The translations under genes were made by a program, and so were the position numbers. A stretch of 64,000 nucleotides of DNA from an uncultured Opitutales bacterium (GTDB taxonomy: Bacteria > Verrucomicrobiota > Verrucomicrobiia > Opitutales > UBA2987): the NCBI GenBank assembly GCA_964542645.1, contig CAZIUG010000003.1, forward strand, positions 130,501-194,500. Direction: 5' to 3'. This document shows positions 3,968 through 50,969 of this stretch, piece after piece. The notes beneath the pieces were generated by a model that saw nothing but the letters and a program-made list of their open reading frames with translations, had not been told where the DNA came from and searched no databases. Every line of letters begins with the position of its first letter. The first letter of the stretch is position 1.

Positions 3968-4966
3968 ATGATAGCTAGACGCTTCACAATTCCCGGAATT
4001 CGCAGGATAGAAATAGAGGAATTTAAGATCGAGGAGACTCCCGATGATGGTATTCTAATCGAGAACGAATTCACCGCTGTTTCGATTGGTACGGAAATCT
4101 ATAATTGGACTATGGGAAGTGAACCAGGAGGCAAACCGATCTTTCCGAAAGCTACAGGTTATTGCAATGTCGGCCGAGTTTTAGAGGTAGGAGCAGCAGT
4201 TGAAGGAGTCTCAATTGGCGATCGAATTGCGGGACAGGGCATGCATGCTAGTCACAACATTCTTCGCGTTGCTTCAGGTTTCGTTAGAGTGCCTGATGAA
4301 GTCGAATCAAAATCGGCTGCCTTTATGATAATGGCTGCTATTGCCCTGCGTGGGGTCCGCGTGGCTCGTATTCAGCTGGGCGAAACGGTTGTGGTCTTCG
4401 GTTTGGGACTGGTGGGACAGCTCTGTGCACTTATAAGTCGTGTATCGGGTGGAGTCCCTGTAATCGGCGTCGACATCGACGATTTCAGAGTGAGTACCGC
4501 TGCCCAAAATAGCTGTGATCTCGCGATCAATCCGGATCAGGTCGATGATCTTAGGGCGGATATTTCAGAGATTTGTCCAGATGACGGCGCCAATGTAATT
4601 TTGGAGTGCACTGGGAAGCCGATGGTTTATCCGTTAGCAACCTCTCTTGCCTGTTTAGGTGGTCGCTTGGTGGCAGTAGGGTCTCCCCGGGGAACTGTAG
4701 AAATGGATTTTTTCCCGGATATCCATTGCCGAGAAGTCAGCATCTTTGGAGCTCACCAGGGGAGAACACCTAAAAAAGACCACCTCCACTACCGCTTCCA
4801 TAGGGAAAGAGAGCGCCAATTAGTGATGGAGTTAATGGCTTCTGGACGATTACCGATTTCTAATCTAATTACTCATGAATTCGAGCCCAATGATTGCCAG
4901 CGAGTCTACACAATGCTGGCGGATAATCCGCAAAAAGTCCTCGGGGTCATTTTTTCTTGGCAGTAG
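3968..4966 (+). CDS. Medium-chain dehydrogenase/reductase (zinc-type alcohol dehydrogenase-like), substrate unknown
   Basis: 332 aa with a GroES-like N-terminal half followed by the Rossmann motif VVVFGLGLVGQL. The classical catalytic-zinc Cys/His pattern is not obvious by eye. Confidence 0.65.
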   Translation: MIARRFTIPGIRRIEIEEFKIEETPDDGILIENEFTAVSIGTEIYNWTMGSEPGGKPIFPKATGYCNVGRVLEVGAAVEGVSIGDRIAGQGMHASHNILRVASGFVRVPDEVESKSAAFMIMAAIALRGVRVARIQLGETVVVFGLGLVGQLCALISRVSGGVPVIGVDIDDFRVSTAAQNSCDLAINPDQVDDLRADISEICPDDGANVILECTGKPMVYPLATSLACLGGRLVAVGSPRGTVEMDFFPDIHCREVSIFGAHQGRTPKKDHLHYRFHRERERQLVMELMASGRLPISNLITHEFEPNDCQRVYTMLADNPQKVLGVIFSWQ

Positions 4967-5111
4967 CTTCCCGACAGGCGAACTCTTTCTGAAACCCGCC
5001 GCAGTTTTCATCTGAGGTGACTCCCATAGCCTTTCTCTCGACCGTTCAGGCCCCTTTTAACATGTGGGTCTTTTCGTCGAGTAGTAGTTGTTTCCCGGAG
5101 CAAAAACTTGA

Positions 5112-5999
5112 TTACATTGGAAGAAAATCGACCACTCGTATTGCTTTTTCGAAACCGGGAGCTCCGACGTATTGGACTGCCGTTGGTCCTATTGCATCTG
5201 TGTGGGGAAAATGAATATGACCGCAGAATACAGCGATCAAATTCCGGGCGGATGTTACTACGTTGACGAACTCCAGAGTTGATTCGAGATCATCTCCGGT
5301 GCCCCATTTTTCGCGGCTCTCAATATCCCAATCAGGATCACCCATTAGAATAGGGGCTCGAAAACATGCATGGGTGTCATTGCGCAAAGTGGGTAAACTT
5401 AATGGGATATGCATCAGCAGGACCGTAGGGATTGAGTTTTTGAGACTATCTTCTACCGCCCGGAGCTGTCCCTCTGTTACTTGGTAGGTAGAGTTATCGA
5501 TTGTAAGCCATTGGATGCCTCCATCCGTGTAGCAGCTGAATGCTGGTTCACCATGATGCAAGGGCAATAGCAGAGGCCAACTGGCTTCTCTTAACGCCGC
5601 GCGTCCTTCTACTCCAGGGAAGTGCCAGTCATGGTTTCCAGCTGTATAAAGAATCGGAGTATTGAGGCCAATAAGGGCTTCGGTCACATGATCGAGATTG
5701 GCTTGCGATGGGAAATGTATAATATCTCCGGTGAGTGCAAGAAGATCAGGATTAAGACTTTGAACTTCGGCAATGACCTCGATAAAAGTCATTTCAGATG
5801 GGATTATCCTTCCGTTATCCGCTCTGCGTTTAGTTCGGAATGTCTCACACGAGCTTTGAGAGGCCTCTTTGTATTCTGCATCCCGATTGTCAATAAGTGC
5901 AACATGGGTATCAGTGATGTGTACCATTCGAATTGGCTTTGCTAGGCCTTCGAGGCGAATAGTCGCGGTTTTGTCTGTCCAGGAATGTGTTACTCTCAT
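5112..5999 (-). CDS. Calcineurin-like metallophosphoesterase
   Basis: 295 aa with the ordered motifs HITDTH, GDIIH, GNHD, MHIP and GHIH. Confidence 0.8.
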   Translation of the reverse strand: MRVTHSWTDKTATIRLEGLAKPIRMVHITDTHVALIDNRDAEYKEASQSSCETFRTKRRADNGRIIPSEMTFIEVIAEVQSLNPDLLALTGDIIHFPSQANLDHVTEALIGLNTPILYTAGNHDWHFPGVEGRAALREASWPLLLPLHHGEPAFSCYTDGGIQWLTIDNSTYQVTEGQLRAVEDSLKNSIPTVLLMHIPLSLPTLRNDTHACFRAPILMGDPDWDIESREKWGTGDDLESTLEFVNVVTSARNLIAVFCGHIHFPHTDAIGPTAVQYVGAPGFEKAIRVVDFLPM

Positions 6000-6330
6000 T
6001 CTGATGTGCCAAATCTTGAATTATGATGCGTGCGGAATGTCGATCCGATTCGTTACCAATTCCCCTCTCAGGCTCTGATTGTAGAGTAAGAGGGAAGCAA
6101 TTCGATAATCCTTTAGGTTGTAGTGGTGAGGGTGGAATAGGCCTTGAATGGGAGCAAGGCAATATACAAGAAGGGATTATGATTTCACTTTTATACCGAG
6201 CCTGGTACCTCAGATGCGTACTGCCTCAGGAATGTTGGGGTTGATTTTTGTGGATCTAATTTTAACTTGATTCAGCTGTTTTCTAAACAGATGGAAAGCG
6301 CGGATTGGAATTGAGTAAACGGTTATGTAC

Positions 6331-6342
6331 ATGTAATTACAT
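6331..6342. promoter_or_regulatory. Perfect 12-bp palindrome ATGTAATTACAT upstream of enolase gene 6387
   Basis: Read directly from the sequence, 45 nt upstream of the ATG. It overlaps a second palindrome, ATGTACAT (6325-6332). Confidence 0.25.
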
Positions 6343-6386: not shown

Positions 6387-7625
6387 ATGAATAATACGTC
6401 CCAGTTGATTGAATCCCTTGGCCGCGAACATTTAAGTATCAGCCGAATCAAGGTGACTCCTATTTCCTATCAGCCGGAAGATGGATCCTACATTCATGAA
6501 TGCGGGCCAGTCGTATTGACTAAACGTGATGAGGCCGTGGTTCAAATCTGGACCGAGGAGGGACTTGAGGGCATTGGCCCAGGGTCGCTCTCTTATTCAG
6601 AACAGAATTTCGATTCTCTCATCGGTCAAAATCCCTTCGACCTTCTTGAAGCCAATCTGCCTCAAGGCCTCAATGTGGCTTGCTGGGATCTGGTCGGGCG
6701 GGCGAAGAATCGGCCAGTATACCAGCTCCTTGCCCTGGATCAACATCCCAACCCTAGAGTCCATGTTTATTCCAGTGGTGGGGTGATGTGGACCTATTAT
6801 GACCGTGGAGATGGGAAGATGTATGGTGTCGATGCGCTTATCGAAGAGGCATTGAATTACAAAGAACTTGGATTTGACACATTCAAGTGGCGCCCCGGAA
6901 CAGATTGGGAAGAGGCAGGAATAAACCCAAAAAAGTTGGGAGAGATCTGTCGCCAGCTGCGTCAGGCTGTAGGTCCTGATTTTAAACTGGGACTAGAGAA
7001 AAAAGGCTACGATTCATGGACTCTTGAGGAGTGTCTTCAAATAGCTCCTATTATCAGCGATTTGGGCTTCTATTTTTTTGAGCAACCAATGGGTGACGCT
7101 GGGCCAGAGCAATTTGATGATTACTTGAGGATAAAGGCGTTGATGCCTGGGGTTATGTTATGGGGAGGAGAGAGCTTCCGTACATTTGATGAAGCGGAGC
7201 CTTGGATGCGTGAGGGAATCTATGACGCCGTGCAATCTGATTGTCTGCACCTCGGGTTAACGCAGAATTGGCGAATTGCCCAGCTGGGGTGCGAAACTGG
7301 TACTAAGATCGTTCCACACAACTGGAGCACTAGTCTCGGAACAATGTGTAATGCCCACCTAGTTGCTGGTACGGGTGGTCACATGCTCGAGTTTTTTATG
7401 TATCCTTCGGGATTTCGATATGGTCTTTTCAAAGAACCGTATCGACCCGATAAAGGAGTTATCACGTTAACAGATGCGCCTGGGTTTGGCGTCGAACTAA
7501 TTGATGATTTTGCCGACAAATTTCCTTACCGGCTGGGGCCTAATACCATTCCGAATCCACGAATCCCGGAGGCTTGGGATCGGGCGCGGATACGGGCAAG
7601 GGCTGTAGCGGGTCGGTACCGTTGA
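6387..7625 (+). CDS. Enolase-superfamily enzyme (mandelate racemase / muconate lactonizing / acid-sugar dehydratase-like)
   Basis: 412 aa with capping domain plus barrel layout. Motifs are WDLVGRAKNRPVYQLL, FFEQP and WGGES, the last two resembling metal-ligand motifs. Family-level call only. Confidence 0.8.
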   Translation: MNNTSQLIESLGREHLSISRIKVTPISYQPEDGSYIHECGPVVLTKRDEAVVQIWTEEGLEGIGPGSLSYSEQNFDSLIGQNPFDLLEANLPQGLNVACWDLVGRAKNRPVYQLLALDQHPNPRVHVYSSGGVMWTYYDRGDGKMYGVDALIEEALNYKELGFDTFKWRPGTDWEEAGINPKKLGEICRQLRQAVGPDFKLGLEKKGYDSWTLEECLQIAPIISDLGFYFFEQPMGDAGPEQFDDYLRIKALMPGVMLWGGESFRTFDEAEPWMREGIYDAVQSDCLHLGLTQNWRIAQLGCETGTKIVPHNWSTSLGTMCNAHLVAGTGGHMLEFFMYPSGFRYGLFKEPYRPDKGVITLTDAPGFGVELIDDFADKFPYRLGPNTIPNPRIPEAWDRARIRARAVAGRYR

Positions 7626-7772: not shown

Positions 7773-8876
7773 ATGCTAAAAATAATCGGCACTGGAATTA
7801 TTTCGCGCGAAGCAGGCCGGGGCGCATTTATGCCTGTAATCACCCTACTTCCTAATGGGAGCTGGATCGCATCGCAGCATGTTGGGGAGGAATTGGGTTC
7901 GCCAGACAATCATATCGAGGTATTGCGGTCTTCCGATGGAGGAGCAACTTGGGCGAATACAGGCAGTGTCCATCCGGGAGGAGGTCTGCCAGACGATGGG
8001 TGGTGCTATCGAGCTCCTCGTATCAGTGTGGTGCCTGATGGCCGTTTAGTTATGGAGGCGACTCGTTTTGAAATAGGCGAAAAACTTTTCGAGTTAGAGA
8101 CCGAAGCGTTGCAACGACCGGAAATGTTGCTCTTTTGGTCAAGCAATTTAGGGCTCACTTGGTCAGGGCCACAAGTTGTGCCAGTGGATCTACCTAAAGA
8201 CAGGTACACTTGGAATGGAGCCGGGTCTTTGCTTCAGCTTTCATCAGACCGATGGGCCTATCCATTGGAGACATGGAAACCGGAAGGATTCGAGGGCCCG
8301 CCAGACCAGAAAGCGGGGATGGTTTTTTCATCGGATCAAGGGCGAACATGGGGAGAATTCACAGTTGTTGCAGACGATCCAACTGGAGAGCTCCTTTGGT
8401 GGGACCAGATGCAAACTGTTCTTCCCGATGGTCGTATCTACACAATGATATGGACGCACCGCTACGGTACCTCTGAGGATCTCGTAAATCACTGGACCAT
8501 TTCTGAAGATCAAGGGAAAACATGGTCGAAACCTAGGCCGACGAATCTTCGAGGCCAGGTATGTTCGCCGGTCGCCCTACCCGATGGGAGAGTCGCTGCG
8601 ATCTACAATTTCAGGCATGATCCTCAAGGCATTCATGTTTCCTTGACCAGCGACCTCGAAAATTTCGATGTGGAGAATAAGGTAGTGGTGTGGGATGCTG
8701 GTAGGGAGGCTACATTGGGTGAGCCAGAGACTGACAATTTTTTGGCGGAGCATATGAAAATTGCATTTGGGAGGCCGGCTGGCTTACTGCTGCCCAATGG
8801 TGATTTATTAACCTTTTTCTGGTGTACCTCGAAGGAAGTTACCGAAACCCGTTGGGTAAAGGTGAGAGTTGATTAA
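7773..8876 (+). CDS. BNR/Asp-box six-bladed beta-propeller protein (sialidase-like, no RIP motif)
   Basis: 367 aa with four Asp-boxes: SSDGGATW, SSNLGLTW, SSDQGRTW, SEDQGKTW. No F/YRIP motif. The N-terminus MLKIIGTGIISREAGRG has no signal-peptide character. Confidence 0.75.
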   Translation: MLKIIGTGIISREAGRGAFMPVITLLPNGSWIASQHVGEELGSPDNHIEVLRSSDGGATWANTGSVHPGGGLPDDGWCYRAPRISVVPDGRLVMEATRFEIGEKLFELETEALQRPEMLLFWSSNLGLTWSGPQVVPVDLPKDRYTWNGAGSLLQLSSDRWAYPLETWKPEGFEGPPDQKAGMVFSSDQGRTWGEFTVVADDPTGELLWWDQMQTVLPDGRIYTMIWTHRYGTSEDLVNHWTISEDQGKTWSKPRPTNLRGQVCSPVALPDGRVAAIYNFRHDPQGIHVSLTSDLENFDVENKVVVWDAGREATLGEPETDNFLAEHMKIAFGRPAGLLLPNGDLLTFFWCTSKEVTETRWVKVRVD

Positions 8877-9166
8877 GGAGAAGCAATTGTTCGCTTTTTG
8901 TTGATAAGATGCCGGCGTTAGCAGATTATGGATATTGAGTTGCAAGTTGTTGGTTCGAGTTTAGGTATTGGGTCTTTGATCGGAATTCCGGCCCTGGTAG
9001 GGGTATCTAGACCCACGAGTTTATAGAGATAAACAGTTCCCATTCCATGGAGGGTAACATTTCATTTTGGTAGCTTTGCCACTTTTTGACCAATAGAGAT
9101 TTCTATGCGTGTCTATCTTATTCCCATCTTTCTAGAGACTGTGACCATCTTACCGAAAAATTGCAA

Positions 9167-10606
9167 ATGACCCGACCTAATATCCTTTGGTACTGTACCG
9201 ATCAGCAACGCTTCGACACAATTGGTGAACTAGGTAATCCATACGTTAGGACGTCTGCAATCGATTCCCTTGTAAAAGGGGGGGCCGCATTTACTCACGC
9301 ATACTGCCAGAGCCCGATTTGCACACCTAGTCGATCGAGTTACATGACTGGACTCTATCCCAGTCGCCTCCATAATACTCGTAATGGCAATGATACTTTT
9401 CCCGCTTGGCCTCCATTGGTCTCTAGGATTATGGCTGATGCTGGTTACGTTTGCGGATTGATCGGCAAGTTTCATCTGGTCAGCGCAGGTGGTCGACCTG
9501 AGCCGAGGTTAGATGATGGGTTTACCTATTGGCAGCATTCTCATGCTCCGCGTGATGATTGGCCACTCGGGACTCACCCCTATGCCGATTGGGTTCGTGC
9601 TCAGGGCCAGGACCTCAATGCCCTACGTGAATCGAAAGATCGCGTCCCGACCACACTTCATCAAACCAAGTGGGCTTCGGACCGAGCCATCGAGTTTATC
9701 AACTATGAGCATGGCTCACCCTGGATGTTAAATGTTAATGTATATGATCCTCATCCGCCTTTCATCCCCCCGGCTTCTTACTCTCGCAGATTCGATTCTA
9801 GTATTATGCCGGGTCCTTATTTCAGAGATTCCGACTTGGATAATCAGGCTAAACTGGAGAATGTCGATTTCCAAGGGGGAGCAATGCCACCGGAGGAGTT
9901 TGGAGGAAAGGATCTTCAAGCCAAATACTATGCAATGATCGCTCAGGTTGACGATCAGTTTGCCCGTATCATGGAGACCTTGGAAAAATCCGGCCAGATC
10001 GATAACACGGTAGTAGTGTTAACTTCGGACCATGGTGAGGCCCTTGGTGATCATGGGCTCGTGCAAAAGGGATGCCGATTCTATGAGGGCCTTAGCCGTG
10101 TTCCATTGATCTTCTCTTGGCCGGGTGTCATTGTCCCTAACCAGAAGCATTCAGGGTTAGTTGAGCTCCTCGATCTATCTGCCACCTTACTTTCGATCAG
10201 CGGGGTAGAGATTCCCGATTACCACCAAGGGCTAAATTTGCTGCCGATTCTTAAGGGAGAGCAAAGGGGAGATTCTATTCGGAAGAGTGTTCGCTGTGAA
10301 TACTTCGACGCTTTGGATACCCCTTCTAAGTTGCTGGGATTGGGGAAGGATTCCCCGGTAGCACTTACTAGAGAAGGAAGTGGCAGTTTTGCCACCATGT
10401 ATCGTACAGAGCACCATAAGATATGCGTCTATCACGATCAGGGGATAGGAGAGCTATTTGACCTCCAGGAGGATCCTTGGGAGTTTGACAATCTTTGGGA
10501 TGATCCGGCTCACGTTGATATAAGAAACCGCTTGATTTTTGAGAGTTTCAATTCGCATGTCTTGTTGACGACTGATGTGGGGTCCAAGCGAATTGCCCAG
10601 ATGTAG
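9167..10606 (+). CDS. Cys-type (formylglycine) sulfatase, no signal peptide
   Basis: CQSPICTPSRSSYMTGLYPSR carries the C-x-P-x-R formylglycine motif. LWYCTDQQRFD (metal site) and SDHGEALGDHG are present. The ORF track starts at TTG 9086. I prefer ATG 9167 (MTRPNILWYC), which matches the usual sulfatase N-terminus. Confidence 0.88.
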   Translation: MTRPNILWYCTDQQRFDTIGELGNPYVRTSAIDSLVKGGAAFTHAYCQSPICTPSRSSYMTGLYPSRLHNTRNGNDTFPAWPPLVSRIMADAGYVCGLIGKFHLVSAGGRPEPRLDDGFTYWQHSHAPRDDWPLGTHPYADWVRAQGQDLNALRESKDRVPTTLHQTKWASDRAIEFINYEHGSPWMLNVNVYDPHPPFIPPASYSRRFDSSIMPGPYFRDSDLDNQAKLENVDFQGGAMPPEEFGGKDLQAKYYAMIAQVDDQFARIMETLEKSGQIDNTVVVLTSDHGEALGDHGLVQKGCRFYEGLSRVPLIFSWPGVIVPNQKHSGLVELLDLSATLLSISGVEIPDYHQGLNLLPILKGEQRGDSIRKSVRCEYFDALDTPSKLLGLGKDSPVALTREGSGSFATMYRTEHHKICVYHDQGIGELFDLQEDPWEFDNLWDDPAHVDIRNRLIFESFNSHVLLTTDVGSKRIAQM

Positions 10607-10660: not shown

Positions 10661-11407
10661 CTAAATGCATCGACCGCCATCTACCTCCATGGCGATTCCG
10701 GTGATAAACGAGGCTTCATCTGAGGCCAAGAAAACTGCTGCCTGGGCGATATCGATTGGTTCACTGAATCGTCCCATTGGTACGGTTGCAATGATACCTG
10801 CCCGACGCTCCAAGGTGTCTTCTCCAATGAAATCTTTAAACATCCCGGTTTCACTTGCTACCGGGCATATAGCGTTCACTCGAATTTTCTCAGGGCCAAG
10901 CTCAATGGCCATTGATTTAGTCAATGCGATAATGGCGCCCTTGCTTCCGTTATACCAAGTCAGACCTGGACGCGGTCGAATACCTGCTGTGGAGGCCATG
11001 TTCAGAATCAATCCTTTGCCACGCTTTCGAAAGTACGGAATCACCGTCTGTGCACTGTGATAGAGGGACTTAACATTGACCGAAAATACCCGACTGAACG
11101 TGACTTCATCAACGTCAAGTAGTGGTTGGTTGGGATGGGCTATTCCCGCATTGTTCACTACCACATCCAAGTTACCAAAAGCCTCTAATGTCGCCTCTAC
11201 CATGGCCCGGTATTGGTTCCCCTCACTCACGTCCACCATCACGGGCAATGCTGTTTCCCCAATCGCATCAGCTACGACTTGTGCCCCCGCCATATTCAAG
11301 TCTGCAACTGTTACCCGAGCTCCCTCCTCCGCATATCTCCGGGCGATCTCGCGCCCAAACCCAGCCGCACCCCCTGTAACAATAGCTACTTTTCCTGATA
11401 GTCTCAT
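10661..11407 (-). CDS. Short-chain dehydrogenase/reductase (classical SDR)
   Basis: Motifs AIVTGGAAGFGRE (TGxxxGxG), NNAG and YNGSKGA (YxxxK). The track ORF extends to 11485, but MRLSGKVAIVTGG at 11407 is the typical SDR start. Confidence 0.85.
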   Translation of the reverse strand: MRLSGKVAIVTGGAAGFGREIARRYAEEGARVTVADLNMAGAQVVADAIGETALPVMVDVSEGNQYRAMVEATLEAFGNLDVVVNNAGIAHPNQPLLDVDEVTFSRVFSVNVKSLYHSAQTVIPYFRKRGKGLILNMASTAGIRPRPGLTWYNGSKGAIIALTKSMAIELGPEKIRVNAICPVASETGMFKDFIGEDTLERRAGIIATVPMGRFSEPIDIAQAAVFLASDEASFITGIAMEVDGGRCI

Positions 11408-11495
11408 CTTTTCAGTCTCTCCTTTCTGCCCAATCCTTTTCAACCCCGAAGTTTGTGCCGGAGGCTTCGAGGTCAGAATCATCAAGTATTTGAGA

Positions 11496-11741: not shown

Positions 11742-12839
11742 ATGAAGATCACAGAAGTAGACCTATACATAGTGGAGAGAATTTCATCAAAAAAAGCGAG
11801 CTGGAGCCCGGCCCAGCCACCGGATAATGAGCTAGTATTTATTGCAGTTAGGACGGATGAAGGGATTGACGGTTACAGTATGGCATGGAGTTCGAGGGGA
11901 GGGCGCAGGATAGCAGAGGAGATAGCAGCCGTGATTAAACCGGAGCTTATAGGCGAGGATCCGATAAACCGGGAATATCTTTTTCACAAGATCCGCCAGG
12001 CCGATCGGTTTGGGGGTCATTTGCCGATTACGGCCCATGGCCCAATCGATGTAGCTCTATGGGATATAGCGGCTAAGAAAGCGGACCTACCGATTTACCA
12101 ACTAGCCGGTGGATATAGGGATCGCATCATGGCCTACGCCACAGGGGGACGATCTCCTGATCCTGAGTACTATATTAAGGATGCGATGGCAGCAAAGGAG
12201 CAGAACTTCAAGGCCTATAAATTGCACCCTCCAGGAGATGCCGATTTGGATATCGAATGTTGTCGTGCTGTGCGGAAAGCAATGGGGGACGATTTTATTC
12301 TTATGAGCGATCCAGTGGCTGCCTACGACCACGAAGATGCGTTGCGAGTGGGTAGAGAGTTAGAAAAATTAGACTACTTCTGGTACGAGGAGCCTTTGCA
12401 TGATTATGATGTCCACGGCTATGTCCAATTGGCCCAGGCTTTGGACATACCTATTGCGGGCTTGGAGTGGGCAAGTGGCAGCTACCATACAGCCGCTGAG
12501 TACCTTGTCCGGGGAGCAGTCGACATTGTTCGAAGTGACGTCTCATGGAAAGGAGGCATCACGGGTTACCTCAAGACTGCTCACCTATGTGAGGCATTTG
12601 GTGTTAACTGTGAAATTCACTTAGCTGTGTTCTCCTTGCTTAATTTGGCGAATCTCCATGCTGCTTGCGGGGTGCGCAACTGCCGTTTTCTGGAATTAAC
12701 CGTAAACCGTGATCACTTTGGTCTTTCCGAGGGGATCTCGGTCGATGAAGACGGTACCGTGCGAGCTCCTCAGGGACCGGGATTGGGTGTAGAACTCGAC
12801 TGGGAAACAATTGAAAAACATACGAAGATCCGCCTTTAA
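11742..12839 (+). CDS. Enolase-superfamily enzyme (racemase / acid-sugar dehydratase-like)
   Basis: 365 aa with WDIAAKKADLPIYQLAGG, YEEP and a C-terminal GPGLGVELD. The ATG is preceded by AAGGAGAAAA. Family-level call only. Confidence 0.8.
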   Translation: MKITEVDLYIVERISSKKASWSPAQPPDNELVFIAVRTDEGIDGYSMAWSSRGGRRIAEEIAAVIKPELIGEDPINREYLFHKIRQADRFGGHLPITAHGPIDVALWDIAAKKADLPIYQLAGGYRDRIMAYATGGRSPDPEYYIKDAMAAKEQNFKAYKLHPPGDADLDIECCRAVRKAMGDDFILMSDPVAAYDHEDALRVGRELEKLDYFWYEEPLHDYDVHGYVQLAQALDIPIAGLEWASGSYHTAAEYLVRGAVDIVRSDVSWKGGITGYLKTAHLCEAFGVNCEIHLAVFSLLNLANLHAACGVRNCRFLELTVNRDHFGLSEGISVDEDGTVRAPQGPGLGVELDWETIEKHTKIRL

Positions 12840-16747: not shown

Positions 16748-16900
16748 TTATTCCCTTTTTTCGGTTTCCGCCTTTGCCCGCATCAGTTGCTGCTATTCGT
16801 TAGCATTTCGATTATAAGAAAGTTAGCCCTTTCTGTCGAATTGACATTACACTCATGCTTCAGCTTGTTTTCTGAAGAAAGCATCGTCGAGTCTCGATTC

Positions 16901-39747: not shown

Positions 39748-39775
39748 AAGTCTTTCCTTCAATTTTAGTTAATGT

Positions 39776-44123: not shown

Positions 44124-44311
44124 GGGGCTTCTTTAGGGCCAGTAGATAATTTGAAGAAAAAGATCGTTTATGGGAAGTGCATCTGCCAATTTTGAGCCGG
44201 ATCAATCGGGGTTGAAATTTAATCTGAATAGTTCATATTCCCGTGTCCAGGGAAGTGCCCAAATTTCGTCCTACTACCCAAATCAACTATATAATTCCCA
44301 GACAAACAGCT

Positions 44312-45151
44312 ATGACAGTAAATCGATTATCTCGAGAACAAAGTTCGTTTTTCGACACATTTGGGTTTCTTTCCCTTCCCGGTTTCATGGCCGATGACAT
44401 AGGAGAAATAACTGATGCCTTTGAGGAGGTTTGGGCTGAGCGCGGTGGAGGGCATCATGGGCAACCCCACGATGGCAAAAACAGATCCTGTATCGTCCCC
44501 TTCATAGACCAGCATGAACGGCTTTGTGCCCTCCTAGACGATCCCCGTATTGAAGGACTTCTGTGCAGTCTTTTAGGAGATGATTTCAACTACATGGGCT
44601 CCGATGGCAATTACTACGCAGGCGATACGCAGTGGCACTCCGATGGTTACACGAAAACTATTCGCCATACCAAGATTGCCTTTTACCTTGATTCGCTTAC
44701 AAGAGACACCGGATGTCTCCGGGTGATTCCGGGTAGCCATCGGCTTGGGGAAGGGTACTCTGAAGTCCTAGAAGGTGAAGTTCGTGATTCAAAAGATCGT
44801 TGGGGTGTAAGAGGGGAAGAGGTTCCGGCTGTGGCCTTTGAAACGAAGCCAGGTGATATATTAATCTTTCAGCATAATCTGAAGCACGCTGCTTTTGGTG
44901 GTGGAGGGCGACGTCGTATGTTTACCATCAATTGTTGCCAGCGGTTTGGACAAGATCAGATCCATCTTCTAAAGAAGGATATTGCAGCCCGTGCTCGGTT
45001 CTGGGTAGATCGGAACTACGGCGAGAAGATGATCGCGACGGCAAATGAGCGTCGGATGGTCCATTTGGAGCAAGTCATGGCGAATGACAGTCACCTGGCG
45101 GAACTTAGCGCTAGGAGTCGTGAGGAAATGGTGGAGCCATCTAGGGGATAG
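44312..45151 (+). CDS. PhyH-family Fe(II)/2-oxoglutarate dioxygenase (canonical triad)
   Basis: Motifs FFDTFGFLSL, QWHSDGY, LRVIPGSHRLG and NLKHAAFGG. I prefer ATG 44312 (MTVNRLS) over the extended track start at 44243. Confidence 0.8.
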   Translation: MTVNRLSREQSSFFDTFGFLSLPGFMADDIGEITDAFEEVWAERGGGHHGQPHDGKNRSCIVPFIDQHERLCALLDDPRIEGLLCSLLGDDFNYMGSDGNYYAGDTQWHSDGYTKTIRHTKIAFYLDSLTRDTGCLRVIPGSHRLGEGYSEVLEGEVRDSKDRWGVRGEEVPAVAFETKPGDILIFQHNLKHAAFGGGGRRRMFTINCCQRFGQDQIHLLKKDIAARARFWVDRNYGEKMIATANERRMVHLEQVMANDSHLAELSARSREEMVEPSRG

Positions 45152-45256: not shown

Positions 45257-46192
45257 CTACTCGATTGCGATTTTCGCCAGGTAGATAGAAGTTTGCCCTT
45301 CATGAGAGGAATAGTAACTTACCCAAAGCATACCATCATGCCAGACCATGCCGGGGTAAGAGCAATCTCCGCCACTGGGTAAGGCTAGTACTGGATCATA
45401 ACTGTTGCGGGTCATCTGTGCTAGAACGGTGATAGGTTTGCCGTCAGGCTGCATTCCTCGAGCAGAAGCCCAGAGAGAACGATTGGGAAGATGAATAAAA
45501 TTGGGGCCGCCAAGGTTCGATTCAAGTTGCGTAAACGACCAATTCTCAAATGGCGGACGGCTCCTCCCAATCCAGTTGGGGCGAATAAGAGCAATCATCT
45601 CATCATCGGGCATGATTCGGAGTGTTGTCTCGCTAACGGTCCAGGTGTTATTGGGCAAGATGAATTCGGTGACCCACTCCCATTCGAGAGCATCTGATGT
45701 GCGATAGAGAAATCCCCTTCGAGGATTTTTGCCCTCACCCAGTTTAGATACGCAGTAGCCGACATTGTCCTTCCAAGTGACTCGCCATAGCCAGTGGTCC
45801 TCGGCAAGTAGTTTTTTATTAGGGGACCACGACCATCCATCATTGGAAAAGGCTACCCGGGGAGAACGCGTTACCTTAGCGTTGTTTTGGAGGGAGATCC
45901 CTCCCATTAGTAACAAAAGGCGACCGTCAGGCATGATCGATATTTTGGGATCGCGCAGATCAATGTTATTTTCGGAGAGTTGGGCTGTCGAGGTCCAGGA
46001 ATCTCCATCCTCGGATACAATTACGCGGATCATTCCAATCGAGTTGCCATGGTTCGTTGCCTCCCGGAATGTGCACCACCATCTACCCTCGAACCGAATC
46101 AGATCAGTGAAGGCGTTGTGCGGTGCGTGGCTCCAGATTTTCTTAACGGAGAGAATCCTGGGTTGTTTATGCGGAACCTGGGAACTGTTCAT
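45257..46192 (-). CDS. BNR-like beta-propeller protein (sialidase-like, HNAFTDL subfamily)
   Basis: 311 aa with PHNAFTDLIRFEGRWWCTFREA and the Asp-box-like SEDGDSWTS and SNDGWSWS. No signal peptide. Confidence 0.6.
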   Translation of the reverse strand: MNSSQVPHKQPRILSVKKIWSHAPHNAFTDLIRFEGRWWCTFREATNHGNSIGMIRVIVSEDGDSWTSTAQLSENNIDLRDPKISIMPDGRLLLLMGGISLQNNAKVTRSPRVAFSNDGWSWSPNKKLLAEDHWLWRVTWKDNVGYCVSKLGEGKNPRRGFLYRTSDALEWEWVTEFILPNNTWTVSETTLRIMPDDEMIALIRPNWIGRSRPPFENWSFTQLESNLGGPNFIHLPNRSLWASARGMQPDGKPITVLAQMTRNSYDPVLALPSGGDCSYPGMVWHDGMLWVSYYSSHEGQTSIYLAKIAIE

Positions 46193-46458: not shown

Positions 46459-47640
46459 TTACCCCCCCATCCGAACATAATCATCAGGGAAAAAGATAGG
46501 CCGTACAAGCTCGTAAGGGTCAGTCTGTCTCGGCGTGCCGGCCGGAACTCGATACTCCATGATCGCATCTTCGTTGAGGTCAAGACCAAGGCCGGGTAGA
46601 GTGGGAATTTTAATTACGTCGCCATGAATTTCAAAAAGATGTGGTGTATTCATCAGCTGAAGTAGGGGTTCCCACTGTTCTTCTGGTCGAAACGGCGGGG
46701 TGATTACTGCTACTTCAAGCATTTTACAGCTTTCAATTGAGGCTGCTAACTGGATCACAGGAGCTAGAAGTAGGTGGTTAGCCCCGTGCATGATAAGGGG
46801 AATACGAAAACCTTCGGCAATTGCAGCAATACGATGGACCGTCATGATTCCACCGGAAAGGAACGCATCAGGTTGCCAGATATCAAGCGATTTATGGGTT
46901 CCGTAACGGATGAAGGGCTCGAGACCGAAATCACGTTCGCCAGCGGTGATAGGAAGATCAACGGATTTAGTGAGCCGGGCATAGCCGTCAACATCTCCGT
47001 GTTCTAAAGGCTCCTCTAACCAGTCTGCCTGGAGAAAATACAGGCAGCGGGCGATTTCAAGAGCTTTCTCGATATCCCAGAGGCTTCCTGAGCACGAAGC
47101 CGTTCGATCGAACATGAATCGGACCTTATCTGGGCCTCCCAAATAATCGCGCAAATGTTGAAACATTTCAATCCTATCGAATGGGTTTTCATCCCATATC
47201 TGAAGTTTTATTGCGCGGTACCCATTTTCCACATACTTAATTATATCCTCCAGTTCCTGTTGAATTGGAGTCTTCTGTAGAGCAGGCCAGCAAACCGTGG
47301 CATACATTTGAATTTCCTGGCGGAAAGATCCGCCAAGCAGACGGTATATTGGTTGGTTAGTTGCTTTCCCGAGTAGATCCCAGAGAGCATGTTCAACGCT
47401 TGCGGCGCGGCCCAGTCCGCGGGCGACATATTCCCCGATCCGGAAAGGATCGTTACCAAGGAGCATCGGACGGACAAGTGAGTTGAGTAGAGTATCGCGC
47501 ACTTCACCAACTCCCCAGCCGGTCAGATTTTCGTTGGTTTGTACTCGCACAAATCCGACTTCGCCGTATTTACCTGCCCGCAGTTCATCGTCCGTGCATG
47601 GAACTTGGACTCGGATTGTATCGATGCTGGTGATTATCAT
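46459..47640 (-). CDS. Enolase-superfamily enzyme (racemase / dehydratase-like)
   Basis: 393 aa with VRVQTNENLTGWGVGE, ALWDLLGKATNQPIYRLLGG, WLEEP and TAGERD. Confidence 0.8.
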   Translation of the reverse strand: MIITSIDTIRVQVPCTDDELRAGKYGEVGFVRVQTNENLTGWGVGEVRDTLLNSLVRPMLLGNDPFRIGEYVARGLGRAASVEHALWDLLGKATNQPIYRLLGGSFRQEIQMYATVCWPALQKTPIQQELEDIIKYVENGYRAIKLQIWDENPFDRIEMFQHLRDYLGGPDKVRFMFDRTASCSGSLWDIEKALEIARCLYFLQADWLEEPLEHGDVDGYARLTKSVDLPITAGERDFGLEPFIRYGTHKSLDIWQPDAFLSGGIMTVHRIAAIAEGFRIPLIMHGANHLLLAPVIQLAASIESCKMLEVAVITPPFRPEEQWEPLLQLMNTPHLFEIHGDVIKIPTLPGLGLDLNEDAIMEYRVPAGTPRQTDPYELVRPIFFPDDYVRMGG

Positions 47641-47769: not shown

Positions 47770-48243
47770 CTCAATTTTGGGGTCAATAGTTAATGAGTAG
47801 CCGCCCTATATGCGGATTGAAAATCTTGATCCAGGAACAGAGCGTCTCCCTCGGAGACGTCCGGCTAGATTGTACCTTGACTATGATTGGGACAAGGGGG
47901 CCTTTACAAGCACGATACCCCTATAAATCCGGGTTTCGGTTTTCTAAATGAAGGGTTTTACCCATTTAGTCTGTTGCGGATAATCGGTGCTTCCTAGGGG
48001 CTTTGACACCCGAGCAGTCGAGTAAGCGTGTCGCGATTCATGGAGTTAACCCGGTTCAGGATACTTCGGATTTGGTGATAAAGGTTAGCTTTCTGTAGGT
48101 GTCTCGGGAGAAACAGCGGCGTTATTATAGTGGAGTTTCGTAACTCTGATATTTGCTGATGGAGCTTCTGATTTCCCAGAGATAAGACTCGAAAAATTCG
48201 AAGAGTCCATTTTAGTTAGTGGCAGAAATTGAGGAGACCTCCA

Positions 48244-49281
48244 ATGAGTAAAAAGATTGTGATTGGAATTACGCGGGAATTTTTGAATGCGGAGGGTAAT
48301 TTCGCTCTTCCCGGACCCGGACTAAAACTTTTCGACGAGATGCCAGGGGTTGAGTATCGGTTATTTAGCGAGGATCTTCCGGTAGTGACTCCTGAGCAGG
48401 TGCTCGGATGCGATATGGTTATTTCGGGCGGAGTCCGATGGGAGAGCAGCTCCTTTGAAGGAATTAATCAACTCGTGGCGGTGCTCTATACTGGAGTCGG
48501 ATACGAGCATCTAGATCTTGATATTATGACCGAGGCCAACGTGATGTTTTGCATTGCGCCTGATGCGGTGCGCCGGCCAATGGCCTCGATTATCATTACT
48601 TTGATACTAGCACTAACTTTACAGCTAATTAACAAGGATCGCATCACACGCCAAGGGCGTTGGGAGGAACAAGAACGATTTCGTGGTGAAGGTGTAACTG
48701 GTAAAACCCTCGGCTCAATTGGAGTAGGGAATATTGGCCATGAGATGTTTATGTTAGCTAAACCTTTCGGAATGCGGCATCTGGGGTGTGACCCCAATGT
48801 GACTCAGGAGGCGGTCGCCGATGTTGGGGTTGAGTTGGTCGATTTGGGTCGTTTGTTGTCGGAGTCTGATTTTGTGAATGTGAGTGTTCCGCTTAGTGAG
48901 CAGACATGGCATTTGATTGGGGAGTCTGAACTGAAGAAAATGAAGCCTTCGGCTTATCTGATCAATACCTCCCGGGGTTCCGTTGTTGACGAGCCAGCTT
49001 TGATACGGTCTCTGCAAAGGGGCCAAATTCGTGGAGCTGGCCTCGACGTGTTTGAACAGGAGCCCGTAGATCCTAATAATCCGCTCCTAAAAATGGAGAA
49101 CGTTGTGGTTTCGCCTCACTCTCTATGCCACACGGAGGAATTTTATATGAGAGCATGGACTGGAAAATTACGGCAGGCCAACCAAATTGCTCGAGGGAAG
49201 GTGCCTGATCATGTCGTCAATAGGGAAGTTCTAGATAAATTGGAGTTGCGGACAAAGCTTTGCAAATTTGGGGAAATTTAA
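48244..49281 (+). CDS. D-isomer-specific 2-hydroxyacid dehydrogenase family
   Basis: Motifs GKTLGSIGVGNIGHEM (GxGxxG), NTSRGSVVDE (Arg, Glu) and VSPHSL (His). I prefer ATG 48244, directly after GAGGAG, over TTG 48229. Confidence 0.85.
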   Translation: MSKKIVIGITREFLNAEGNFALPGPGLKLFDEMPGVEYRLFSEDLPVVTPEQVLGCDMVISGGVRWESSSFEGINQLVAVLYTGVGYEHLDLDIMTEANVMFCIAPDAVRRPMASIIITLILALTLQLINKDRITRQGRWEEQERFRGEGVTGKTLGSIGVGNIGHEMFMLAKPFGMRHLGCDPNVTQEAVADVGVELVDLGRLLSESDFVNVSVPLSEQTWHLIGESELKKMKPSAYLINTSRGSVVDEPALIRSLQRGQIRGAGLDVFEQEPVDPNNPLLKMENVVVSPHSLCHTEEFYMRAWTGKLRQANQIARGKVPDHVVNREVLDKLELRTKLCKFGEI

Positions 49282-49328
49282 GAACTCTCGTTGATTTTGG
49301 CTGGATTATAAACGTGAACTCTAGGTAA

Positions 49329-50291
49329 CTACATTTTTTTCTCCGGAACCTTCAGCTGAGTAAACTTGAAGTCGGGTCCTTTAGAAAATGTGGCTCCGTA
49401 ACCTAGTCCCCAATCGTACGGGCCGTCACCGGCTTGATCCTCGGCCCAGGCCTTGAGAGGAACGCTATCCCAATTTTGAGTGAACCAATACTGGGACTCA
49501 GGACTGGATGTGGGTTCGCTCCCGAGAGGGTTTCCGCTATGTCCCATCGATCCGAGGAGTTGCCGACGGATCGGTGAGCTGTGGGCTATCAGATCGGAAT
49601 TTTGTTCAATGTACCCACTAGGCTTAATCCACCGTGGAGAATAGCTGACATTGAATGCCTTACGAAAATTCTCTGAAAGATTGGGGGTGACGCTATGAAG
49701 CGTAGTTGGACGCCACAGCATGGCGCTCCCGGCCGGAACTCGGATTTGTACGATTTCGTCAGGATTCAGCCACTCCTCCCAAGTGGATCGCTGATTGCGA
49801 TCCCATTTATAGCTACCTCGCACCATTAGGATATTACTATGTCCCGGTTCGGTGTGATCCGAAATGTACCAGCCCACTTTAAAATCTAGAAGTGGCATGA
49901 CTCCGTCGACTGTGGTGCCGGCAAACTCTTCTTCGTAGTCAAAGTGCCAGCCTAGTTTCAACCTTTTGGGATTGGAGCCGTCTTGCAGGGGCGCCGCGTA
50001 GTCGAAAACGGAGTCACGATTCTGGATGTTCCACCCTAACGCATCTACTACTAAGGGAAGGATCTTCGGATGGTCCAATAAGGCCAGGAAGGCTGCATGG
50101 CGTGCCAGTCCGTTGCGACAAGAGACGCTTTCCTTAGATCCCACGCCTCTTTCCTGCCGAAGGTGATCCGCGACCTCGTCCATTGCGGACGATATCTGCT
50201 CCAATTCCTCGCCTGCTAGGACATTTTCCAGCACCGTCCAGCCCCAATCGTTGAGCTCGTGTATTTGGGTCTCTGTTATCGCAATAGTCAT
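49329..50291 (-). CDS. PhyH-family Fe(II)/2-oxoglutarate dioxygenase, paralogue of 25729-26664
   Basis: 320 aa with GWHFDYEE (HxD) and TLHSVTPN. It shares LPLVVDA(I/L)GWNIQ, SSPIRRQLLG and PL(R/K)AWAED with 25729-26664. VRGSYK replaces PGSHK. Confidence 0.75.
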   Translation of the reverse strand: MTIAITETQIHELNDWGWTVLENVLAGEELEQISSAMDEVADHLRQERGVGSKESVSCRNGLARHAAFLALLDHPKILPLVVDALGWNIQNRDSVFDYAAPLQDGSNPKRLKLGWHFDYEEEFAGTTVDGVMPLLDFKVGWYISDHTEPGHSNILMVRGSYKWDRNQRSTWEEWLNPDEIVQIRVPAGSAMLWRPTTLHSVTPNLSENFRKAFNVSYSPRWIKPSGYIEQNSDLIAHSSPIRRQLLGSMGHSGNPLGSEPTSSPESQYWFTQNWDSVPLKAWAEDQAGDGPYDWGLGYGATFSKGPDFKFTQLKVPEKKM

Positions 50292-50597
50292 TTTGGAAGT
50301 CCTCTTGATTTGGTAAAACTTGGATCGTCTTCCACTGGGGGCAGGTAGCTTTCTGATTAGTTAAAGTTCTATTCTCTTCAAAATTCGTTGTAATTCTATC
50401 AGGGTGATAGTTACGAATCCATCGAAATTCCCCTTCAGGATGGGGTAATTCCCCAACAGTTTAATCGGGTATTTCCCACGACCACTTCCTCAGAAATATA
50501 GGATAGAGGTTAACTAGAAGATATTGTTAGAAAGTTACAACTTCGAATTGAATATAGACTTGCTGGCTTCCTATATTAATGTGAACGTACCCTCCCG

Positions 50598-50969
50598 GTG
50601 AGCGCAGAGGAAGAGATTGAGCTGGCTCGAAAGTATGTTAACCTTTCCAATCGTTACGAATTAGAAATGGTTTTTCGTATGTTCGATGAGAATGCGGTAT
50701 ATCATTCTAATTATGTAGGCTCATTCAAAGGCTTGGTGGCAATATCTACAATGATGCGGGAATTTTTCGCGCGGCATACCGATGTCCGTTGGGTGGTAGA
50801 CAAGTACAGCATCTCTAAAAAGGGAGGTGTTGAATTCGATTTTGTTCGACGTAATTCCGACCCAGAGTCAGGTAAAGAAACAAGCGGAAGAGGGCGGGAG
50901 CGAATCGTTTTCAATGATACAGGCCTCATTATGAAGATCGAAGTGGATACATTTAAATCCAGACCTTAA
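50598..50969 (+). CDS. Small NTF2/SnoaL-like protein
   Basis: 123 aa with a GTG start. The pattern ...FDENAVYHS...F.G...I...F... fits the SnoaL-like alpha+beta cone. This is a weak family call. Confidence 0.45.
   Translation: MSAEEEIELARKYVNLSNRYELEMVFRMFDENAVYHSNYVGSFKGLVAISTMMREFFARHTDVRWVVDKYSISKKGGVEFDFVRRNSDPESGKETSGRGRERIVFNDTGLIMKIEVDTFKSRP

Follow-up and report, generated by a model that had tools for sequence, protein, structure and literature searches.

A 47-kb gene neighbourhood rich in PhyH-type oxygenases, propeller proteins and enolase-superfamily enzymes in Candidatus Moanabacter: a possible intracellular toolkit for decorated sugars

Introduction

Marine Verrucomicrobiota are credited with the degradation of sulfated and methylated algal glycans and SAR202 bacteria with the oxidation of recalcitrant dissolved organic matter; the enzymology of the paralogue families concerned is mostly guesswork. 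Here we compare with described systems a block of 40 genes, about 47 kb long (positions 3968-50969) and bounded by queF (3191-3604) and parC (50989-52956), in a 64,000-nucleotide stretch of DNA, hereafter the window, from an uncultured Opitutales bacterium (GenBank assembly GCA_964542645.1, contig CAZIUG010000003.1, positions 130,501 to 194,500). The whole window holds about 48 real genes. Exact and near-exact matches assign it to the genus Candidatus Moanabacter/Moanibacter (Opitutia, Puniceicoccales), and the host is a free-living marine verrucomicrobium. The genome of Candidatus M. tarae is a 2.63-Mb Tara Oceans contig with 2,237 coding sequences (CDS) (CP029803; PMC6256433), and the literature found on Moanabacter consists of this genome announcement, which contains no metabolic analysis (PMC6256433).

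SAR202 group I (Chloroflexota) shows paralogue expansions and non-phosphorylative breakdown of both sugars and sugar acids (PMC6946804; PMC10444878), and provides a precedent for sugar catabolism that uses no kinase and is accompanied by numerous enolase paralogues, major facilitator superfamily (MFS) transporters and sulfatases (PMC10444878). A preliminary description of the window had likened the block to such paralogue-rich catabolism of complex marine organic matter, and the comparison is apt, SAR202 group I being the nearest concept described so far (PMC6946804, PMC10444878). Both are found in marine oligotrophs with small genomes and combine deeply divergent enolase paralogues of the mandelate-racemase subgroup with NAD(P) dehydrogenases, MFS transporters and sulfatases; both lack the architecture of a polysaccharide utilization locus (PUL), and parallel kinase-free pathways have been proposed. 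They differ in phylum, and the block has only four enolase-superfamily enzymes but eight PhyH-type and one TauD-type oxygenases together with intracellular-looking propellers, all physically clustered; the PhyH, TauD and propeller families are not highlighted in SAR202.

Carrageenan and 3,6-anhydrogalactose catabolism in Zobellia relies on dagA/dagB, sulfatases and dauA-D (PMC5698469). It is the nearest characterised pathway in which, as in the block, glycosidases and sulfatases occur together with a dehydrogenase, an enolase-superfamily enzyme (there DauB, 5olc) and an aldolase, but the Zobellia locus has an AraC regulator, transporters, the kinase dauC and periplasmic steps of its own, and neither Fe(II)/2-oxoglutarate (2OG) oxygenases nor GH33/BNR proteins. 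In the agar route for 3,6-anhydro-L-galactose (L-AHG) a cytoplasmic GH117 is used. Bacteroidota PULs and the verrucomicrobial degraders of sulfated glycans (PMC8857213) resemble the block in having glycoside hydrolase-like proteins, a sulfatase and a deacetylase side by side; unlike them, the block lacks SusC/SusD, a TonB-dependent receptor, signal peptides and a regulator, has a single sulfatase and consists mostly of oxidoreductases. With the nan sialic-acid cluster it shares a GH33 homologue with the RIP motif and Asp boxes, but by Pfam it has no NanA-type lyase (DHDPS family), NanK, NanE or sialate transporter, and its sialidase homologue looks intracellular. The features that define a PUL, a nan cluster or a mobile island are absent from the block, and these three candidates were rejected.

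On present evidence the block differs from the known systems in its phylum, in the dominance of PhyH and TauD oxygenases, in its apparently intracellular propellers of the GH33, BNR and GH43-related types and in its clustering, and it is not categorically new. It is a neighbourhood, neither an operon nor an obvious regulon, and it comprises several activities, not one pathway. The reading we favour, and to which we give about an even chance, is that it represents a vertically kept, multi-substrate intracellular finishing toolkit for decorated sugars, sugar acids and glycopeptide-like fragments.

Results

Gene content of the block

Gene content was assigned with Pfam hidden Markov models, using the gathering score as the threshold. 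Nearly the entire inventory of the preliminary description was recovered. Among the eight PhyH-type oxygenases it counted, seven score above the PF05721 gathering score and the eighth (37077-38183) is a remote member recognised by profile comparison. Its TauD-type enzyme (30413-31255, PF02668), its four enolase-superfamily enzymes (MR_MLE genes starting at 6387, 11742, 31552 and 46459) and its two further propellers (12910-13593, Vgb-lyase/SGL-like, and 42534-44123) are present, and Pfam also finds the sulfatase, CE4 deacetylase, alpha/beta hydrolase, M55, M19, amidohydrolase and HpcH aldolase. Of four announced BNR propellers, one said to be a bona fide GH33, three stand, including the GH33 homologue (38394-39398), and the fourth (45257-46192) is doubtful. 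Dehydrogenases and reductases, put at ten or more, number nine: one medium-chain dehydrogenase/reductase (MDR), two short-chain dehydrogenases/reductases (SDRs), one epimerase-type SDR, one GFO, one aldo/keto reductase (AKR), FMN_dh, Ldh_2 and 2-Hacid_dh. Four genes had been overlooked, encoding a metallophosphoesterase, a DMFase-like amidase, a NIPSNAP protein and a SnoaL_2 protein. The accompanying interpretation fared less evenly: intracellular location, non-PUL character and linkage are supported, whereas expansion, a single system and the novelty of the pathway are not. The 40 genes are as follows.

g04, 3968-4966 (+), medium-chain (Zn-ADH type) dehydrogenase; PF00107, E 1.2e-16
g05, 5112-5999 (-), calcineurin-like metallophosphoesterase; PF00149, E 6.5e-9
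g06, 6387-7625 (+), enolase-superfamily protein, acid-sugar dehydratase type; PF13378, E 9e-33, under every NCBIfam equivalog cut-off
g07, 7773-8876 (+), BNR/Asp-box propeller without RIP motif; PF13088, E 3.9e-14, 3 Asp boxes
g08, 9086-10606 (+), Cys-type sulfatase; PF00884, E 6.7e-42, CTPSR motif
g09, 10661-11485 (-), short-chain dehydrogenase; PF13561/PF00106
g10, 11742-12839 (+), enolase-superfamily protein; PF13378, E 2e-54, closest solved structures Agrobacterium 1rvk/4hcd, L-talarate/galactarate dehydratase
g11, 12910-13593 (+), small beta-propeller, Vgb-lyase/SMP30-lactonase-like; PF24684 and PF08450, both sub-threshold
g12, 14044-15321 (+), MFS transporter; PF07690, 8 hydrophobic segments
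g13, 15512-16747 (-), amidohydrolase/deacetylase-family metallohydrolase; NF006689, 369.8 bits against a cut-off of 371
g14, 16721-18058 (+), FMN-dependent alpha-hydroxyacid dehydrogenase; PF01070, E 5e-120
g15, 18153-19022 (+), PhyH-type oxygenase, HygX-like subgroup; PF05721, 3 bp 5' of g16, 32% identity to g35
g16, 19026-19781 (+), NAD-dependent epimerase/dehydratase-type SDR; PF01370
g17, 19946-21052 (+), Ldh_2-family 2-hydroxyacid dehydrogenase; PF02615, E 6.5e-92, under equivalog cut-offs
g18, 21145-22014 (+), M55 (DppA-like) aminopeptidase; PF04951, E 1.7e-66
g19, 22288-23259 (-), alpha/beta hydrolase, esterase or peptidase type; weak DLH, AXE1 and Peptidase_S9 matches
g20, 23655-24389 (+), HpcH/HpaI-family aldolase; PF03328, E 8e-21, closest equivalog 2-keto-3-deoxy-L-rhamnonate aldolase, sub-cut-off
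g21, 24463-25557 (+), M19 dipeptidase; PF01244, E 3e-47
g22, 25729-26664 (+), PhyH-type oxygenase; PF05721, WHPD...H...R motif, 41% identity to g42
g23, 26936-28147 (+), BNR/Asp-box propeller without RIP motif; PF13088, E 9e-16, 4 Asp boxes
g24, 28195-28959 (-), PhyH-type oxygenase, 254-aa orthologue group; PF05721, E 1.8e-37
g25, 29295-30299 (-), GFO/IDH/MocA oxidoreductase; PF01408/PF22725
g26, 30413-31255 (-), TauD/TfdA-family oxygenase; PF02668, E 8e-59, taurine dioxygenase equivalog at 230.7 bits against a cut-off of 313
g27, 31552-32775 (+), enolase-superfamily protein, galactonate/mannonate dehydratase-like; PF13378, E 8.5e-52, solved-structure matches
g28, 32979-33965 (-), aldo/keto reductase; PF00248
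g29, 34082-34840 (-), short-chain dehydrogenase; PF00106
g30, 35131-35871 (-), CE4-type polysaccharide deacetylase, no signal peptide by hydropathy scan; PF01522, E 1.8e-18
g31, 35997-36944 (-), PhyH-type oxygenase; PF05721, E 4.8e-26
g32, 37077-38183 (-), remote PhyH-like protein; no Pfam match, hhalign against the PhyH profile 94.8%
g33, 38394-39398 (-), GH33 sialidase homologue, 334 aa, no signal peptide; BNR_2, BNR_3, YRIP and 3 Asp boxes
g34, 39427-39762 (-), NIPSNAP-domain protein; PF07978, 28 bp from g33
g35, 39867-40721 (-), PhyH-type oxygenase, HygX-like subgroup; PF05721, top solved structures 4xc9/4xcb, E 1e-9
g36, 40918-42501 (+), DMFase-beta-like amidase/acylase; PF20254, E 5.5e-53, solved N-acetyl-beta-phenylalanine acylase, E 1e-15
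g37, 42534-44123 (-), predicted five-bladed propeller plus beta-sandwich, GH43-related; AlphaFold2 and Foldseek, no Pfam match
g38, 44243-45151 (+), PhyH-type oxygenase; PF05721, E 7e-15
g39, 45257-46192 (-), doubtful propeller; sub-threshold BNR_2/GH43, no Asp box, weak BLAST matches to g07 and g23
g40, 46459-47640 (-), enolase-superfamily protein; PF13378, E 4e-39, second-best solved structure 5olc (DauB; PMC5698469)
g41, 48229-49281 (+), D-isomer-specific 2-hydroxyacid dehydrogenase; PF02826, E 2e-57
g42, 49329-50291 (-), PhyH-type oxygenase; PF05721
g43, 50598-50969 (+), small SnoaL_2 (NTF2-like) protein; PF12680

Clustering and stability within the genus

As a baseline we took, from other assemblies of this population, the window flanks together with the next 10 kb or so to their left and right; the window and these extensions cover about 82 kb of the genome. 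This set comprises MFS, two GFO, TauE, PolX, DivIC, UDPGP, PGM and QueF on the left and ParC, ParE, GltB, a sigma-54 activator, SerC, SerA, a GAF histidine kinase, GlnA, an ImuB-like protein and DnaE2 on the right. PhyH, TauD, BNR and enolase genes account for 17 of the 40 block genes and for none of the 21 flank genes (Fisher p = 2e-4, relative to these flanks). The PhyH density of the block (8/40), if extended genome-wide, would need about 450 PhyH genes among 2,237 CDS.

Window proteins are more than 90% identical to those of Candidatus M. tarae, sharing 90%-identity clusters with AWT60941 to AWT60976 in matching order, and over 21 kb the window and L088, a Tara contig of M. tarae type, contain the same genes and are 92.9% identical in nucleotide sequence. 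By both the accession order and this contig the block is collinear within the genus, and the linkage that the preliminary description had proposed to examine in related genomes is conserved at this level. Over the 19 genes g24-g42, codon positions 1+2 are 94-99% and third positions 83-92% identical to the same contig, a pattern indicating functional genes under purifying selection. Intergenic identity (70-92%) does not exceed that of third codon positions, so that no conserved non-coding element stands out. The G+C content of third codon positions (GC3) hardly differs between the block (0.481) and the flanks (0.476), and neither a tRNA nor an integrase or transposase Pfam domain was found in the block; together with the collinearity with a 93%-identical relative, this rules out a mobile island or a recent transfer of the whole block. 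Paralogues share only 21-41% (PhyH), 23-27% (enolases) and 23-28% (BNR) identity. Recent tandem duplication is ruled out by these values, and the phrase "four expanded families" does not hold if read as local amplification, the paralogues being old.

Some individual genes may have a different history. g37 and g33 are 71-74% and 66-73% identical to proteins of other lineages, whereas ParC is 62% identical to that of the closest other genome among the matches listed; since these identities exceed that of ParC, the comparison suggests that g33 and g37 moved between phyla. One g37 homologue lies in a marine Gemmatimonadetes metagenome-assembled genome (MAG), GCA_002727195.1. The parC-anchored matches listed belong to distant genomes (54-62% ParC identity), and no block genes lie near parC in these 80 Verrucomicrobiota/Bacteroidota loci. 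As the parC-anchored matches listed are distant genomes, they are silent on close relatives, and the loci served as a control set.

Linkage in other lineages

In a family-level relative (73-85% protein identity) the order g34, g33, g32, g31 is kept, with insertions between the genes. It is represented by three assemblies (L083, L084 and L085); the g31 orthologue (85%) is linked to g32-g34 in L083 and L084, and the g34 orthologue (74%) lies near the g33 orthologue in L084 and L085. The three assemblies differ by DDE-transposase insertions, some of which split BNR_2, methyltransferase and NRPS-like AMP-binding/thioesterase genes, and an ankyrin-repeat protein is encoded nearby; these features suggest an insertion sequence-rich, possibly host-associated cousin of Moanabacter.

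More distantly, two contigs of 5.1 and 8.4 Mb (L086 and L180) carry a compact same-strand cluster encoding PhyH, MDR, class-III aminotransferase, GH33, enolase, (AKR) and enolase, with GFO and Ldh_2 genes nearby. Its PhyH is 63% identical to g24 and its GH33 63-66% identical to g33, and the gaps among the first four genes of L086 are 57, 2 and 21 bp. This lineage joins in one cluster three of the four families singled out in the preliminary description. It shares with the block orthologues of g24 and g33 and members of the enolase, MDR, AKR, GFO and Ldh_2 families. It differs by its compact single-strand layout, g24 and g33 lying 10 kb apart on a strand mosaic in the window, and by an aminotransferase, AP_endonuc_2 proteins and a large MTHFR-like protein that are all absent from the window.

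Similar neighbours recur around g37 homologues: two PhyH, four GFO and a sulfatase in the Gemmatimonadetes MAG (71% identity), two PhyH, BNR_2, GH32, PIG-L and GFO in a second locus (L170), and PhyH, BNR_2 and GFO in a third (L171); no PhyH was found around the homologues in two others (L172 and L173). The 37 loci of g33 homologues (580 kb) contain 22 extra BNR, 11 g37-like, 9 sulfatase, 7 PhyH and 3 enolase genes, compared with no PhyH, enolase or g37-like gene, 2 BNR and 6 sulfatase genes in the parC control loci (1249 kb), which come from different taxa. The 7 PhyH against 0 correspond, by sequence share, to p about 3e-4. A Pfam census of the 140 ORFs within 3.5 kb of g33 homologues gave BNR_2 13, DUF1501 10, PhyH 4, MFS 4 and GFO 3. 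DUF386 (YhcH family), which we take to be sialic-acid associated, occurs there in 2 of 140 ORFs and GntR/FCD regulators occur twice (L089-L165); DUF1501, DUF386 and GntR/FCD are absent from the window. PhyH, BNR, GH43-related, GFO and sulfatase genes are thus repeatedly co-located in other lineages.

The g24 orthologue (61%) of a Rhodospirillaceae MAG (GCA_002728255.1, L181:1-16194) has as neighbours a TAXI/TRAP transporter, a succinate-dehydrogenase-like flavoprotein and Fe-S subunit, and genes for 2-dehydro-3-deoxygalactonokinase and KDPGal aldolase. This setting hints that the g24 group acts on an imported carboxylate, e.g. a sugar acid. Our literature search found no description of an association of PhyH with GH33/sialidase and enolase, in Verrucomicrobia or in marine settings. 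The earlier statement that no characterised pathway is known to join PhyH, BNR and enolase enzymes agrees with this but is overstated, given carrageenan catabolism and the uncharacterised L086/L180 cluster.

Oxygenases

The seven PF05721 proteins score 36.8-130 bits against a gathering cut-off of 22, and g32 aligns with the profile of these seven with an hhalign probability of 94.8% (E 4.8e-8). The distal His and the 2OG-binding Arg are invariant across the alignment of the block PhyH proteins, and the HxD iron motif is clear in g22, g24, g31, g38 and g42. In g15 (FHGS), g35 (LHCA) and g32 (WHAH) no Asp or Glu stands at +2 after the first iron His, in alignments that are uncertain at 22% identity; 4xc9/4xcb (oxidase/hydroxylase), the best solved relatives of g35, read LHGG at this position. 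The missing acidic residue could reflect either a non-canonical iron site, such as halogenases have, or a misalignment at this low identity.

The PhyH proteins of the block resemble human PHYH and PHYHD1 with no specific match. The best structural relatives of g15, g35 and g24 include HygX-type, EvdO and SnoK/SnoN oxygenases, which we take to act on sugar moieties of antibiotics. Ectoine hydroxylase is among the closest curated PhyH equivalogs of g24 and g31, below its cut-off. The 254-aa orthologue group of g24 is spread over several phyla, with homologues 52-84% identical.

Enolases, aldolase and hydrolases

The four enolases are closest to acid-sugar dehydratases and cycloisomerases, namely galactonate, arabinonate and talarate/galactarate dehydratases. 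Among the four, the best score against an isofunctional family was that of g27 for galactonate dehydratase (247 bits, cut-off 311), the other enolases scoring far lower; the amidohydrolase g13 fell short of the NF006689 cut-off by 1 bit. Solved relatives of the enolases include DauB (5olc) and L-AHG cycloisomerase, and g10 and g40 match 5olc at E 4e-35 and 5e-28, with an identity too low to infer the same substrate. At family level a non-phosphorylative sugar-acid set is complete, comprising dehydrogenases (g04, g09, g16, g25, g28, g29), a lactonase-like protein (g11, weak), enolase-type dehydratases (g06, g10, g27, g40) and an HpcH-type aldolase (g20), with no kinase domain.

The sulfatase g08 probably starts at Met28 (about 9167), and other assemblies annotate 479 aa. 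Neither a formylglycine-generating enzyme (FGE) nor an anaerobic sulfatase-maturating enzyme (anSME) gene was found by Pfam in the window or its near flanks, although g08 carries CTPSR. The longest ORF of g14 includes a hydrophobic 60-residue extension (16721-16900) overlapping the start of the divergent amidohydrolase gene. Since the Pfam domain begins at residue 84 and the Met at residue 61 is the likely start, this membrane-anchor-like extension is probably untranslated.

Propellers

g33 matches BNR_2 (E 1e-35), BNR_3 (E 1e-21) and solved sialidases (E 5e-34), and has the YRIP motif at residue 17 and the three Asp boxes that characterise the six-bladed GH33 sequence family. Its residues R18, D43/D45, E196/E201, R212/R214, R269 and Y297 are invariant in a sequence alignment of 20 homologues, and their spacing presumably fits that of known sialidases; they are candidates for the Arg triad, the Asp acid/base and the Tyr-Glu nucleophile pair. 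g07, g23 and g39 have no RIP motif and no sialidase-level similarity, and their pairwise identity to g33 is 23% or undetected.

As g37 (529 aa) gave neither a Pfam match nor a solved-structure match by sequence search, we turned to structure prediction and fold search. The AlphaFold2 model (pLDDT 89, pTM 0.91) predicts a five-bladed propeller plus a beta-sandwich, and a Foldseek search (E about 1e-11, <=15% identity) matched it to GH130 mannoside phosphorylases, GH32, GH43 and further glycosidases of the five-bladed propeller type. The family counts 4,838 cluster representatives at E <=0.001 and, judging from the model, appears to be GH43-related, without a reported function in the literature found.

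Cellular location and transport

A hydropathy scan of the maximal ORFs, a heuristic and not SignalP, revealed no signal-peptide-like N-terminus on any block protein, and because the ORFs are maximal there is no room for a hidden upstream extension. The one seeming exception, g14, is explained by its over-long ORF. For all the hydrolases it agrees with the preliminary description, which saw no basic n-region followed by a hydrophobic core and considered the set intracellular; the block enzymes indeed look so. About 88 of 117 close GH33-family homologues of g33 measure 320-359 aa, a length that leaves no room for a signal peptide, whereas a lipoprotein-type signal peptide opens about 16 of the longer homologues; in the g37 family 115 of 118 homologues lack one. 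The MFS protein g12 (14044-15321), named as the only transporter, is the sole membrane protein in the block. Among the 40 proteins Pfam finds no regulator, TonB/SusCD, ABC system or sugar kinase, as had been noted (TonB_dep_Rec, Plug and SusD families, 0/40). With no SusC/SusD, exported glycoside hydrolase or regulator found, the view that this is neither a PUL nor a textbook sugar operon stands.

Discussion

The toolkit reading would work as follows. Transporters encoded elsewhere would first import small decorated fragments. Glycosidase-type propellers (the GH33 homologue, the two Asp-box proteins and the GH43-related one) would then free monomers in the cytoplasm, from which the sulfatase, CE4 deacetylase, amidohydrolase, DMFase-like amidases, esterase and two peptidases would remove substituents. 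The eight PhyH and one TauD oxygenases would hydroxylate positions resistant to hydrolases, removing or activating groups. Finally, dehydrogenases, the lactonase-like propeller, the four enolases, the HpcH aldolase and the three 2-hydroxyacid dehydrogenases would channel the carbon to pyruvate without a kinase. We infer the substrates, the order of the steps, the roles of the oxygenases and the relatedness of the compounds acted on.

Several observations weigh against this reading, beginning with the flank-only baseline and the taxonomically different control loci already mentioned. No block protein exceeds any curated cut-off of the NCBIfam isofunctional families, so that catalytic assignments hold at family level only, and the M55, M19, Ldh_2 and TauD genes could serve the use of peptides or osmolytes as readily as that of glycans. 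The closest NCBIfam families of g12, far under their cut-offs, are drug:H+ antiporter types; g12 may be more antiporter-like than a sugar importer, an importer role is doubtful, and the block would then not be self-contained. L086 and L180 are related (83-92% amino-acid identity), and their cluster therefore counts as one lineage. PhyH genes lie near g33 homologues in 5 of 37 loci, a fraction that chance could give in genomes where PhyH makes up about 1% of genes, and the g24 orthologue of the Rhodospirillaceae MAG occurs without a GH33. The 40 genes are split into 19 directons, and same-strand neighbours lie less than 50 bp apart only in the tight pairs g15-g16 (3 bp) and g33-g34 (28 bp); the gaps contain no plausible small regulator ORF and no Rfam family at its gathering score, and even the most widespread intergenic 8- to 10-mers occur in no more than 3-4 of 40 gaps. 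These three negatives and the intergenic identity given above led us to reject a hidden regulator, a riboswitch or a shared operator. Counts of sigma-70 promoters and intrinsic terminators equal those of shuffled sequence (21 vs 23.1 and 20 vs 19.4), and these scans are therefore uninformative. With its 19 directons, two tight pairs and no common motif, the block is not one co-transcribed unit, most of its genes probably being transcribed separately, and the notion of one catabolic system fails on this point.

A bolder proposal, which we regard as unlikely, is that PhyH oxygenases, intracellular GH33, the g37 family and enolases form an undescribed cytoplasmic route, transferred among marine and soil oligotrophs of several lineages, in which oxygenases replace lyases, kinases and specialised hydrolases. 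For example, sulfate, methyl or amino groups would be lost oxidatively, or the ulosonic or amino-sugar acids released by the sialidase would be hydroxylated. If this were true, a small-genome cell could mineralise decorated acidic sugars that resist standard pathways. For the toolkit and this route alike, the block is a compact and evolutionarily stable candidate set with three entry points: the 254-aa PhyH group (g24), the 334-aa intracellular-looking GH33 group (g33) and the g37 family of about 4,800 clusters. These three groups are highly conserved across the sampled lineages and repeatedly found near one another. Their substrates, if found, would help to explain PhyH expansions in ocean bacteria, and one possible outcome is an oxygen-dependent, kinase-free route for decorated acidic sugars, relevant to carbon turnover.

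It is also conceivable, though on balance somewhat unlikely, that the block arose by passive accumulation, a permissive stretch between core genes having gathered unrelated single-gene functions, partly from other phyla, that share nothing but their location. The strand mosaic, the long gaps, the lack of a regulator and of a common motif and the low identity of the paralogues are what such a history would leave, and so are the identities of g37 and g33 above that of ParC, the 80 parC loci devoid of block genes and the proximity elsewhere of orthologues of g24 and g33. It accounts poorly for the enrichment of the four families over the flanks, for the repeated proximity of members of these families in several lineages and for 21 kb of collinearity without gene gain or loss, and GC3 equal to that of the flanks, the lack of an integrase or tRNA and purifying selection on all genes tested also argue against it. 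Were the genes functionally unrelated, the block would be an ordinary accessory-gene neighbourhood.

Amino-acid-derived compounds, such as peptides containing D-amino acids, N-acyl amino acids or hydroxylated or sulfonated osmolytes of the ectoine and taurine type, could alternatively be the common theme, with the propellers as side players. We consider this improbable. The M55, M19, amidohydrolase, DMFase-like acylase, Ldh_2, D-2-hydroxyacid dehydrogenase and TauD genes would suit it, as would the sub-cut-off ectoine hydroxylase equivalogs of g24 and g31, the TauE sulfite exporter about 10 kb left of the block, the aminotransferase of the L086/L180 cluster and the TRAP transporter, of a type usually carrying carboxylates, beside a g24 orthologue. 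However, g33 retains the sialidase motifs and family-invariant residues of catalytic type, the predicted fold of g37 matches glycosidases and glycan phosphorylases, and a CTPSR sulfatase, a CE4 deacetylase, an HpcH aldolase and acid-sugar-type enolases are present; the relatives of g15, g35 and g24 also include the oxygenases presumed to act on antibiotic sugars.

Export of the hydrolases by non-classical or lineage-specific signals, which would make the block a PUL-like extracytoplasmic system, is very improbable: the signal peptides of some 16 of 117 close GH33 homologues and the heuristic nature of our scan leave it some room, but none of the maximal ORFs has a hydrophobic N-terminal core, most of their relatives in other organisms have no signal peptide either, and Pfam finds no SusC/SusD, TonB-dependent receptor or secretion-system gene. 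A role in tailoring or making a glycosylated natural product, to which the oxygenases with their SnoK/SnoN, EvdO and HygX-type relatives, the SnoaL_2 and NIPSNAP domains, the SDRs and the epimerase might point, is barely credible and was rejected, as Pfam finds no core biosynthetic gene in the block (no PKS, NRPS, terpene synthase, glycosyltransferase or sugar-nucleotide gene) and the hydrolases and aldolase suggest degradation.

Genes flanking the block

About 5-10 kb left of the window start, on the far side of the housekeeping genes PolX, DivIC, UDPGP, PGM and QueF, another MFS gene, two GFO/IDH/MocA genes and a TauE/SafE sulfite exporter gene are found (L175:1-6000); a sulfite exporter would match the block's TauD-type oxygenase and sulfatase. 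To the right of parC/parE (52971-62586, L177:1-9925) lie the nitrogen-assimilation genes gltB, a sigma-54 response regulator, a GAF histidine kinase and glnA, interleaved with serC/serA and followed by the ImuB-like and DnaE2 mutagenesis pair. The serA gene (D-3-phosphoglycerate dehydrogenase; 62662-64000, +) has 446 open codons and exits the right end of the window, and the ORFs at 62655-62969 (-) and 63351-63665 (-), which lie inside it in antisense, are artefacts.

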